Assembly (NCBI RefSeq): GCF_003334305.1
Contig: NZ_QOWS01000056.1
DNA: 2,216 nt
Direction: 5' to 3' (one strand)
Source: Escherichia coli
GTDB lineage: Bacteria > Pseudomonadota > Gammaproteobacteria > Enterobacterales > Enterobacteriaceae
Every line of letters starts with the position of its first letter. Within the stretch, counting starts at the first letter, position 1. The notes below the pieces were generated by a model. The model was given only the letters and a program-made list of their open reading frames with translations, did not search any database and was not told the origin of the DNA. The position numbers and the translations under genes are program-made. Shown here in pieces: positions 539-2,216 of the stretch.

Positions 539-793
539 TTACGTGATCTTTCCCTGGGATACAACTCTGGCAATGGTATCGTGAACAGGAATACCATTTT
601 CAAAATCACCATATTGCTTCAAAAAATCGAGATGTGTTTCCCCGAAATCCTCTATATCTTCCCAACCTTCTGCACCAGAAATAACGGCACAAATAGTCAA
701 CAGTAGAATATCTGACAATTTATGCACCACTTTCCAGGCTTGTCTGTAATCGGGGGTAATAGAAATATGTTCCATCAATTTTTTAAGTTCCAT
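539..793 (-). CDS. Truncated ISAs1-family (H-repeat-associated, H-rpt) transposase, N-terminal fragment only, 84 aa; probably non-functional as a transposase
   Basis: Residues 1-79 ([79 protein letters not shown]) match, from memory, the N-terminus of E. coli H-repeat proteins (YhhI/YdcC-like, about 378 aa). The ORF then ends after 5 unrelated codons (QGKIT-stop), so the DDE catalytic region is absent. An AAGGTGA Shine-Dalgarno lies 4 nt upstream of the ATG. It resembles my recollection of the 84-aa YbfQ (unverified). Confidence 0.8.
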
Positions 794-1018: not shown

Positions 1019-1588
1019 TTATTTCTCTTCACTACGAATTAGTTCATGCTGTATCTTTATTAAACATTCGTAAGACTCATTTTTGTTCGGGAGATGTGCT
1101 GTCATTCGAGCATAAGTTGGTTTCTCATCTTTAAAATATTTTACCATGATTGAATTATCAAGGACTGCCAACAACTGAACTGGATCACTGCTCTTTTTTT
1201 GATAGATACCCGCTCTTATATAACTTCTAAACCGATCGCCGAGAAACGCCGTTTTTTCTGCTGTATTTATCAACTCCTGCAACGTTCCTTTGATGGCATG
1301 ATTTTCATTAAGGCGTAGTGACCCGACGCGAATTAAGAGTCTCGCCCCGCTTGGTGTGAATTTATTATTTTTACATGTACCCAGTTCTGTTTGCCAATAA
1401 TACTCACCGATGTCCTCATTCTGATACCATCTCCACATGGCTTTATTATTTAAGACAGGAAACGCGGAAAAAATAGTACCCTTAGCGAAAATAGTAAAAC
1501 AATCATGATCTTTAGCTTGTATTTCGCAATCAGCTATAACACCAAAACTAACAAATATCATCAGCAAAAAGAACAAAACTCTTTTCAT
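1019..1588 (-). CDS. Candidate Rhs immunity protein, secreted/periplasmic (N-terminal signal peptide), 189 aa
   Basis: Intact 189-aa ORF whose ATG (1586-1588) overlaps the toxin stop TGA (1585-1587) as ATGA. A GAGG Shine-Dalgarno lies 9 nt upstream. The N-terminus [24 protein letters not shown] has basic residues, a hydrophobic core and a small-residue cleavage region. The gene is AT-rich (about 30 percent GC in a sampled stretch). Immunity role is inferred from position and coupling only. Length and signal peptide resemble my recollection of E. coli YbfC (unverified). Confidence 0.7.
1532..1588 (-). other. Predicted Sec signal peptide (residues 1-19) of the 189-aa ORF
   Basis: [19 protein letters not shown] followed by DCEIQ. 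No canonical lipobox (Asp precedes the Cys), so signal peptidase I cleavage is more likely than lipoprotein processing. Confidence 0.55.
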
Positions 1589-2216
1589 TTTCTTATTCCT
1601 CTCGATGTTCTCTGTTTCATTTTAGCTAAAATTTCACCCAAATCATCTATCCCTGCTGTTGCTGGCCCATCGGGTTTATTAATGTCTGGGAATAAATAGG
1701 GTTCTGCACAAGTATATCCTGGTGGTAATTGAGTTGTTGGCCAATTTGTCTGTGGCAGGTAATCACTTGCTGTCTTTGTATCCATCCCTGGATACTGGGA
1801 ATCATCCTGTGGCGTACAAGTCAGATTTGGTTTTACCCACTTCCTGCAATACAGTGTGTAGTCGTAAGGGCTTAATACTCTGAAGAATGTTTTGAAAACA
1901 TTAGGCGCACTACTGGCCTGGTCAATAGGATATGGCAGTCTTAATTGTTTCGCTATGTCCGGCAATTTACTTGGATCGGGCGTAGGCGGTTTGTTGGGTC
2001 TCGCTCCATATCCGCCATTATTTAAGTGTCCATATTTTGATGCCAGTCCCATTGAATCTATATACTGAACCGGATTCAGCGGATACTGATAAAAATTCCA
2101 TCCCCCCTTCAGCCCAATCGGATCCTGAGTGATATACCTCCCCTGCAGCGGGTCATAATAGCGGTGGCGGTTGTAATACAGGCCGGACTCCTCATCATAC
2201 TGCTGCCCCGGCAGCC
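1585..2216 (-). CDS. Rhs-family polymorphic toxin, 3' portion: end of the conserved Rhs core fused to a variable C-terminal (toxin) domain; 5' end lies beyond the window
   Basis: Minus-strand translation of 2214..2044 gives [57 protein letters not shown] with no stop codon back to the window edge. This is the hallmark C-terminal end of Rhs/YD-repeat cores (established knowledge). The frame continues uninterrupted to TGA at 1585-1587. The supplied ORF (1585..2052) begins at an internal Met only because the true start is outside the window. Confidence 0.85.
1588..2043 (-). other. Variable Rhs C-terminal domain (Rhs-CT, candidate toxin), 152 aa, activity unassigned
   Basis: Sequence immediately after the demarcation motif: [50 protein letters not shown]...[22 protein letters not shown]. 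Pro-rich with 3 Cys. I see no recognisable nuclease, deaminase or other catalytic motif by eye. Position after the core demarcation is where polymorphic toxin domains sit (established knowledge). Confidence 0.6.
1597..1602 (-). promoter_or_regulatory. Shine-Dalgarno (AGAGGA) for the 189-aa ORF, embedded in the 3' end of the toxin CDS
   Basis: Minus strand reads cgAGAGGAataagaaaATG, with 9-nt spacing from GAGG to the ATG. Confidence 0.5.
2044..2216 (-). other. Conserved C-terminal segment of the Rhs core, including the core/CT demarcation motif region
   Basis: Contains DPIGL followed 21 residues later by [10 protein letters not shown], a PxxxxD-x-GL demarcation motif. The segment is markedly GC-rich (about 59 percent by hand count of 2101-2216) compared with everything downstream. 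Confidence 0.8.

Follow-up and report, generated by a model that had tools for sequence, protein, structure and literature searches.

Identity and Organization of the Locus

The stretch of DNA analyzed here (hereafter the window: 2,216 nt of contig NZ_QOWS01000056.1, Escherichia coli assembly GCF_003334305.1) was identified by megablast as the distal part of an E. coli RhsC element on the minus strand. It shows 99.5% nucleotide identity over 2214 nt to K-12 substr. GM4792, with which it shares the gene order and a 380-bp duplication, and in which an N-terminally truncated RHS protein (ybfO), ybfC, and ybfQ-type ISAs1 fragments are annotated. Twelve substitutions separate the two sequences; ten of them represent five sites changed in both copies of the repeat, and two fall in the putative C-terminal toxin domain (CT) of YbfO. 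In K-12, ybfO, ybfC, and the ISAs1 fragments are located downstream of rhsC-ybfB, between ybfA and ybgA, the H-rpt (ISAs1) part of that element comprising ybfQ/ybfL/ybfD. Composition, homology, and distribution make it very probable that the window is the end of an RhsC element in which the fall in GC content marks the junction between a conserved core and an exchangeable cassette of CT and immunity gene, the two having separate histories. The following features were distinguished (GC3, GC content at third codon positions):

2110–2216, minus strand: ybfO orphan fragment, final part of the conserved Rhs core as far as the motif DPIGL; GC 58.9%, GC3 0.74, host-like codons, profile matches.
2044–2109, minus strand: 22-codon linker carrying the second protease motif, DSMGL; GC 42.4%; autocleavage predicted after the L at 2044.
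1585–2043, minus strand: C-terminal toxin domain (CT) of YbfO, putative, 152 amino acids plus the stop codon at 1585–1587; GC 42.7%, GC3 0.34 (frame-3 translation).
1019–1588, minus strand: ybfC, presumed immunity gene, 189 amino acids; GC 36.7%, GC3 0.34; annotated protein YbfC.
1532–1588, minus strand: codons 1–19 of ybfC, signal-peptide-like, with MKR, a 15-residue hydrophobic stretch, and VIA/D (slash, candidate cleavage point), as read from the sequence.
968–1018, no strand: 3' flank travelling with the cassette, from blastn homology end-points.
1–936, no strand: 380-bp tandem repeat in 2.5 copies, made of ISAs1 (H-rpt) 5' ends; GC 33%; outside the cassette.

The assignment of the core is supported by two profiles matching residues 1–57 of ybfO in the window: TIGR03696 (72.7 bits against a cut-off of 32.5), whose match ends at MGL, and NCBIfam NF041261 (RHS_core), of which model positions 1205–1261 of 1261, that is, the very end, were covered. 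The K-12-type ybfO is itself a fragment of 332 core codons annotated without an N-terminus, and a full-length shell is absent; the copy in the window is an orphan module, incomplete as an Rhs toxin. A scan of the window against Rfam returned no match, and promoter-like sites were not enriched in it (5 against 7.9 expected).

GC Content and Codon Usage

The first-pass annotation of this DNA had described, from hand counts, a stepwise drop over three levels, with about 59% GC at the core end, about 48% in the CT, and about 30% in the immunity gene. Exact counting gave 59.5% for the core end (2101–2216), in agreement with the first of these figures. The second was only close, the two samples behind it having 46.7% (1741–1800) and 43.3% (1861–1920) and the whole CT 42.7%, while the third was correct for the 60 nt that had been counted (1021–1080, 30.0%), a sample unrepresentative of ybfC, which has 36.7% GC over its whole length. 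The expectation that a properly windowed calculation would not yield uniform composition was confirmed. An unsupervised likelihood change-point scan of 1019–2216, with significance taken from 300 permutations, placed a break after 2097–2101 whose strength was reached by none of the permutations (0/300), and the step from core to CT was also significant by Fisher's test (p = 0.003; 2110–2216 versus 1589–2109). The same step was present when 996 nt or 3675 nt of K-12 core were used, and in six other loci. At the K-12 locus, the ybfO core has 61.6% GC (GC3 0.75) and the rhsC core 61.8% (GC3 0.72), with 41.3% in the neighboring rhsC tip and 31.2% in ybfB. Chance fluctuation in a short AT-rich window has some appeal, as the core segment within the window measures only 107 nt, but with a permutation p < 1/300 and the step repeated with the longer K-12 core and at the six other loci, this explanation is refuted and its probability is negligible.

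Past this step, the composition changes little. The CT and ybfC differ by six points (42.9% versus 36.7% GC; Fisher p = 0.046), and their 100-nt windows overlap (0.39–0.50 in the CT, 0.29–0.46 in ybfC). Once the main step was removed, the next break fell at 1650 and not at the gene boundary at 1588, and it was not significant (permutation p = 0.12–0.17). The difference is confined to codon positions 1 and 2 (GC2 0.49 versus 0.34, with GC3 about 0.34 in both genes), so that it can be attributed to amino-acid composition, the toxin sequence being rich in proline and glycine. The same order in total GC, CT above immunity gene, recurs in three other genera (45–50% versus 37–40%), and the second step is thus weak and marginal, small but reproducible. 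Nor does the downstream repeat region (1–1018, 33.1% GC) differ significantly from ybfC (p = 0.15). The pattern consists of one sharp step and, beyond it, a long AT-rich trough, which corrects the three-level gradient of the first-pass annotation to a single step: the sharp fall from core to CT stood, and the fall from CT to ybfC shrank to a marginal one.

Codon usage was compared with a reference of 13 flanking K-12 genes rather than the whole genome (50–58% GC, GC3 0.52–0.65; leave-one-out synonymous-codon score 0.145 ± 0.047). The Rhs cores were host-like (z +0.2 to +0.7), whereas atypical scores were obtained for the CT (z −9.3), ybfC (z −6.6), and the linker (z −3.8), as well as for the neighboring rhsC tip (z −7.6) and ybfB (z −11.3). 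The codon usage of the cassette is therefore unlike that of the flanking host genes, as had been anticipated, and together with a GC3 of 0.34 it gives the compositional signature of horizontally acquired DNA against this reference. Although richer in GC than ybfC, the CT has the more atypical codon usage, which again speaks against a gradient of "foreignness" along the cassette. A true gradient, in which core, toxin domain, and immunity gene would each have a separate origin, could draw on the order of total GC (core > CT > immunity gene) found here and in the three other genera and on the Fisher value of 0.046; however, the equal GC3, the GC2 difference explained by amino-acid content, the non-significant second change point, the codon scores, the joint presence of the CT and YbfC families at all loci examined, and the origin of the 30% figure in a single unrepresentative sample largely refute it, and we consider it highly improbable.

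The Junction between Core and Tip

The first-pass annotation had set the limit of the cassette at 2043. The drop in composition does not start there but near 2100–2110, directly after the first motif, DPIGL. Nucleotide identity between ybfO and rhsC is 97% over 2110–2216, 95% over 2072–2109, 61% over 2044–2071, and 43% beyond, which places the break in DNA homology near 2071. The two genes therefore combine near-identical cores with differing tips, the arrangement of a variable C-terminal domain. In the frame-3 translation, DPIGL and DSMGL lie 17 residues apart, as in two-motif Rhs proteins and in keeping with the PxxxxDPxGL demarcation of Rhs toxins, with S in place of P in the second motif. 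Characterized Rhs proteins have two DPLGL motifs 17 residues apart, with the catalytic aspartate in the second and the toxin starting at the next residue (PMC8636562). From this spacing, the toxin is predicted to start at the Ala encoded at 2043–2041, so that 2043 retains its meaning as the predicted boundary of autoproteolytic cleavage after DSMGL, even though the composition and homology breaks lie elsewhere.

The 22-codon linker between the motifs is conserved in protein sequence, yet it has only 35–45% GC in five enterobacterial loci (the window, rhsC, Citrobacter, Pseudocitrobacter, and Kluyvera); its equivalent in rhsC has 34.8%, and the value is low in most other loci examined. As the linker is already AT-rich, the composition break precedes the functional end of the core. 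The junction is thus a zone of about 60 nt, with the composition break at about 2100, the homology break at about 2071, and the predicted cleavage at 2044, rather than a single point.

Both the contrast between a GC-rich core and an AT-rich tip and the C-terminal displacement of orphan tips have been described by Jackson et al. (2009; PMC2935791), and the compositional contrast is also stated in PMC8636562. The orphan tips of the former study resemble the window in the same GC contrast, in a low-GC trough extending past the gene, and in the succession of partial core, hyperconserved end, and tip. No essential difference from those systems was found; here the GC drop begins at the first DPxGL motif, some 22 codons ahead of the predicted cleavage point, with the homology break between the two motifs. 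The window also resembles Rhs1 of Photorhabdus laumondii (PMC8636562), which has two DPxGL-type motifs 17 residues apart and a toxin starting at the alanine after the second. It differs from Rhs1 in that its second motif is DSMGL and not DPLGL, its copy has neither the N-terminal part of the shell nor a vgrG neighbor, and its cleavage is predicted. The composition step and the locus are already known, the former as textbook Rhs behavior on record for decades and the latter as annotated in E. coli K-12; what the present analysis adds to them is the single step, the localization of the junction to about 60 nt, and direct evidence that the cassette changes locus within E. coli.

Distribution and Mobility of the Cassette

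Of 5426 complete E. coli genomes, 3615 (67%) carry the cassette at 1019–2043 (1025 nt), nearly always with at least 95% identity. It usually lies on the chromosome in a single copy (median 1, with no genome having more than 2 places). In K-12-like strains, the cassette, with 96–100% nucleotide identity, is an orphan behind rhsC-ybfB. In Ec40743 and in O157:H7 strain 8368, it forms the primary tip of a full-length Rhs of 1399 amino acids at the RhsC locus. In AR_0015, a copy with 96.3% identity caps a full-length Rhs located between nikR and yhhJ (RhsB locus), which we take to be the place of rhsB in K-12. The full-length Rhs genes bearing this tip in the three strains encode 1395–1399 amino acids. 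The cassette thus changes locus within E. coli, and its presence is patchy (67% of genomes).

Homologues of YbfC with 59–90% identity occur in Salmonella, E. albertii, Pseudocitrobacter, Kluyvera, and Citrobacter. In Kluyvera intermedia, a full-length Rhs at an unrelated locus is capped by the CT/YbfC pair, and the pair found in Citrobacter and Pseudocitrobacter is an orphan located behind vgrG-rhs. In the latter two genera, the full-length rhs upstream of the orphan cassette follows directly after vgrG, which links it to type VI secretion, whereas the E. coli RhsC locus has no vgrG neighbor. The compositional contrast recurs in Kluyvera, Citrobacter, and Pseudocitrobacter, where the core has 59–62% GC (GC3 0.72–0.76), the CT 45–50%, and the immunity gene 37–40%. 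Across these contexts, homology of the cassette ends 1–50 nt past the ybfC stop codon, with blastn end-points at 976 (AR_0015), 980 (O157), 968 (Pseudocitrobacter), 1001 (Citrobacter), and 1018 (Kluyvera).

In each of three distant CT loci examined, an open reading frame matching the YbfC profile was adjacent (hmmsearch E 4e-42 to 5e-12), and a further relative of the CT was found on an Rhs fragment in the betaproteobacterium Paracidovorax. The pairing of the two families in the loci examined indicates that toxin and partner move jointly. Purifying selection acts on both genes, the ratios of nonsynonymous to synonymous substitution (dN/dS) being 0.13–0.31 overall, 0.16–0.31 for the CT and 0.13–0.26 for ybfC. 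Against homologues in other genera, the E. coli cassette shows a synonymous divergence (dS) of 0.5–1.6, with GC3 of 0.33–0.45 where host neighbors have about 0.6. The treatment of 1019–2043 as a cassette distinct from the core is accordingly upheld by codon scores, by the homology break, and by its occurrence in several loci and genera, and the comparison with Rhs tips of other genomes, which had been proposed as a check, reveals a discrete, portable unit.

Proposed Origin and Exchange of the AT-Rich Cassette

A model of the locus can be proposed in which the orphan Rhs module ybfO ends with a GC-rich core followed by DPIGL and DSMGL, and the toxin would be cut free after DSMGL. The core would recombine among Rhs loci and carry host-like codons, while CT and immunity gene would form a unit of about 1.1 kb (approximately 970–2071), AT-rich and codon-atypical, that moves as one block. 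Through homologous recombination in the conserved end of the core (C-terminal displacement), new cassettes may be joined on, and older tips would then be shifted downstream as orphans with part of the core still attached; later core-to-core recombination could fuse an orphan tip again to the full-length gene. As the collections searched contained no genuine plasmid copy and no phage copy, exchange is most simply explained by homologous recombination at the core end. We infer the direction of the events in K-12 (displacement or deletion), as well as toxicity and immunity.

Several observations weigh against this interpretation. As the window itself contains only 107 nt of core, the high-GC level is drawn in part from the near-identical K-12 locus. 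The low GC is long-standing, and the cassette is widespread, usually single-copy, and at least 95% conserved in E. coli. No donor was identified, and searches of plasmid and phage collections, in which a transfer vehicle could have appeared, gave no genuine plasmid copy and no phage match. The five matches in the plasmid collection were all E. coli records typed as non-mobilizable, and the three longest of these "plasmid" records (1.2–4.8 Mb, carrying ybfC) are probably mislabelled chromosomal records. K-12 is not known to have a type VI secretion system, and the module is probably silent in the present strain, in which ybfO is without the Rhs N-terminal part.

As an alternative, the low GC may be maintained locally, by AT-biased mutation, weak codon selection in rarely expressed genes, or silencing of AT-rich DNA, in a cassette that may be old and largely vertical in Escherichia; the core would stay GC-rich through gene conversion between its many copies. 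The presence of the cassette in 67% of complete E. coli genomes with at least 95% identity and usually as one chromosomal copy is in line with this explanation, as are the lack of a plasmid or phage copy and the homologues that keep a GC3 of 0.33–0.45 against about 0.6 in their flanks at a dS of 0.5–1.6. Since low GC3 persists at such divergence, recent arrival from a low-GC donor cannot be read from the composition. Had there been one old import only, its composition should have drifted toward that of the host, so that the AT-richness must be either renewed by exchange with an AT-rich pool or maintained locally, and composition alone neither dates nor sources the cassette. However, the cassette occurs at both the RhsC and the RhsB locus in E. 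coli and in other genera, a third of E. coli genomes are without it, and its composition break lies within about 30–60 nt of the DNA-homology break. Local maintenance would explain the composition and not the mobility; the two accounts are compatible, and local maintenance as the explanation of the pattern appears rather unlikely beside a junction between core and exchangeable cassette.

The Putative Toxin Domain and Its Partner YbfC

The CT belongs to an uncharacterized family and is a putative toxin. A profile search retrieved only 30 relatives among 1.84 billion representative proteins, and eight more distant relatives that were read (27–41% identity) all follow Rhs core ends. Three cysteines are conserved in the domain. 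Neither the CT nor YbfC matched Pfam, NCBIfam, PADLOC, or PHROGs, and no sequence-profile match to the Protein Data Bank (PDB) was obtained. The structure model of the CT was moderately confident for residues 61–120 only, where it consists of a three-stranded sheet and helices, and it had no structural neighbor outside its own family. No functional study was found in the literature on ybfO and ybfC; one in silico paper on enterohemorrhagic E. coli lists the same tip, with a primer (rhsCR) that matches 1982–2001 of the window, and offers only a weak structural guess.

YbfC is the presumed cognate immunity protein of the CT. All CT homologues examined are followed by a YbfC-family open reading frame, in most cases overlapping by 4 nt, and a small downstream gene co-inherited in this manner is what would be expected of a toxin/immunity pair. 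In the window, the ATG of ybfC overlaps the stop codon of ybfO as ATGA, and the same 4-nt overlap is kept in Citrobacter, Pseudocitrobacter, and Kluyvera, which suggests that translation of ybfO and ybfC may be coupled. A Shine-Dalgarno-like GAGAGGAA is also present about 8 nt upstream of the ybfC start (window 1585–1610).

Four cysteines are invariant in the alignment of YbfC homologues, and an AlphaFold2 model of the protein is a beta-sandwich (predicted local distance difference test score, pLDDT, 78) with only generic Ig-like matches. The N-terminus has an n-h-c layout with a small residue at −1 (VIA/D) and looks like a Sec signal peptide; the layout is kept in homologues of 27–40% identity, where it ends in ALA, ASA, AFA, or AIA. 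YbfC would accordingly appear to be exported, and if so, the toxin may act in the periplasm or on the envelope. That YbfC is a lipoprotein was considered, Cys21 being invariant, and is unlikely: position −1 is D in E. coli, several homologues have no cysteine at the site corresponding to Cys21, and the four conserved cysteines fit two disulfides better.

The signal-peptide-like N-terminus and the conserved cysteines of YbfC recall type VI effector/exported-immunity pairs such as the Tae/Tai amidases. No similarity in sequence or fold was found, however, between the CT or YbfC and any described effector or immunity family, so that a common E. coli toxin tip and its partner, which two thirds of strains carry (K-12 and O157:H7 among them), fall outside all described families. 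It is conceivable, although we hold this only tentatively, that the CT and YbfC found an undescribed and very rare toxin/immunity family, with no known toxin fold and with a Sec-exported, disulfide-bonded beta-sandwich as partner. If this were the case, the periplasm or the envelope would be the site of action of this Rhs toxin.

Variation within the pair was also observed. Between the RhsC-locus and RhsB-locus alleles (window 1019–2043 versus the AR_0015 copy), YbfC carries 14 amino-acid changes and the toxin domain 4, and across genera the order is reversed, with a dN/dS of about 0.13 for ybfC versus 0.2–0.3 for the CT. One distant CT homologue is accompanied by two consecutive YbfC-family genes (4735–5301, E 1.5e-30; 5404–5976, E 1.4e-34), which points to duplication of the immunity gene or to a second cassette of which a remnant survives. 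In O157:H7 strain 8368, ybfC is annotated as frameshifted (8001–8571 of the extracted locus) and the upstream full-length Rhs with this tip is intact, which leaves an intact toxin gene beside a broken presumed immunity gene.

ISAs1 Repeats Downstream of the Cassette

The repeat at 1–936 has a period of 380, 2.5 copies, and 97% matches. Each full copy comprises the 5' end of an ISAs1 (H-rpt) transposase gene with its first 84 codons (159–413 and 539–793, minus strand). NF033564 (transpos_ISAs1) scored 65.1 bits, below its cut-off of 70, over model positions 1–51 of 314; an intact transposase is not present, and the annotation lists the ISAs1 copies as partial pseudogenes. Over the 300 nt that the repeat finder aligned, copies 1 and 2 show no differences, and the same five sites differ from GM4792 in both of them (78/458, 81/461, 93/473, 101/481, and 375/755), which suggests concerted change or an independent recent duplication. 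The copy number of the repeat varies between strains, Ec40743 having one copy.

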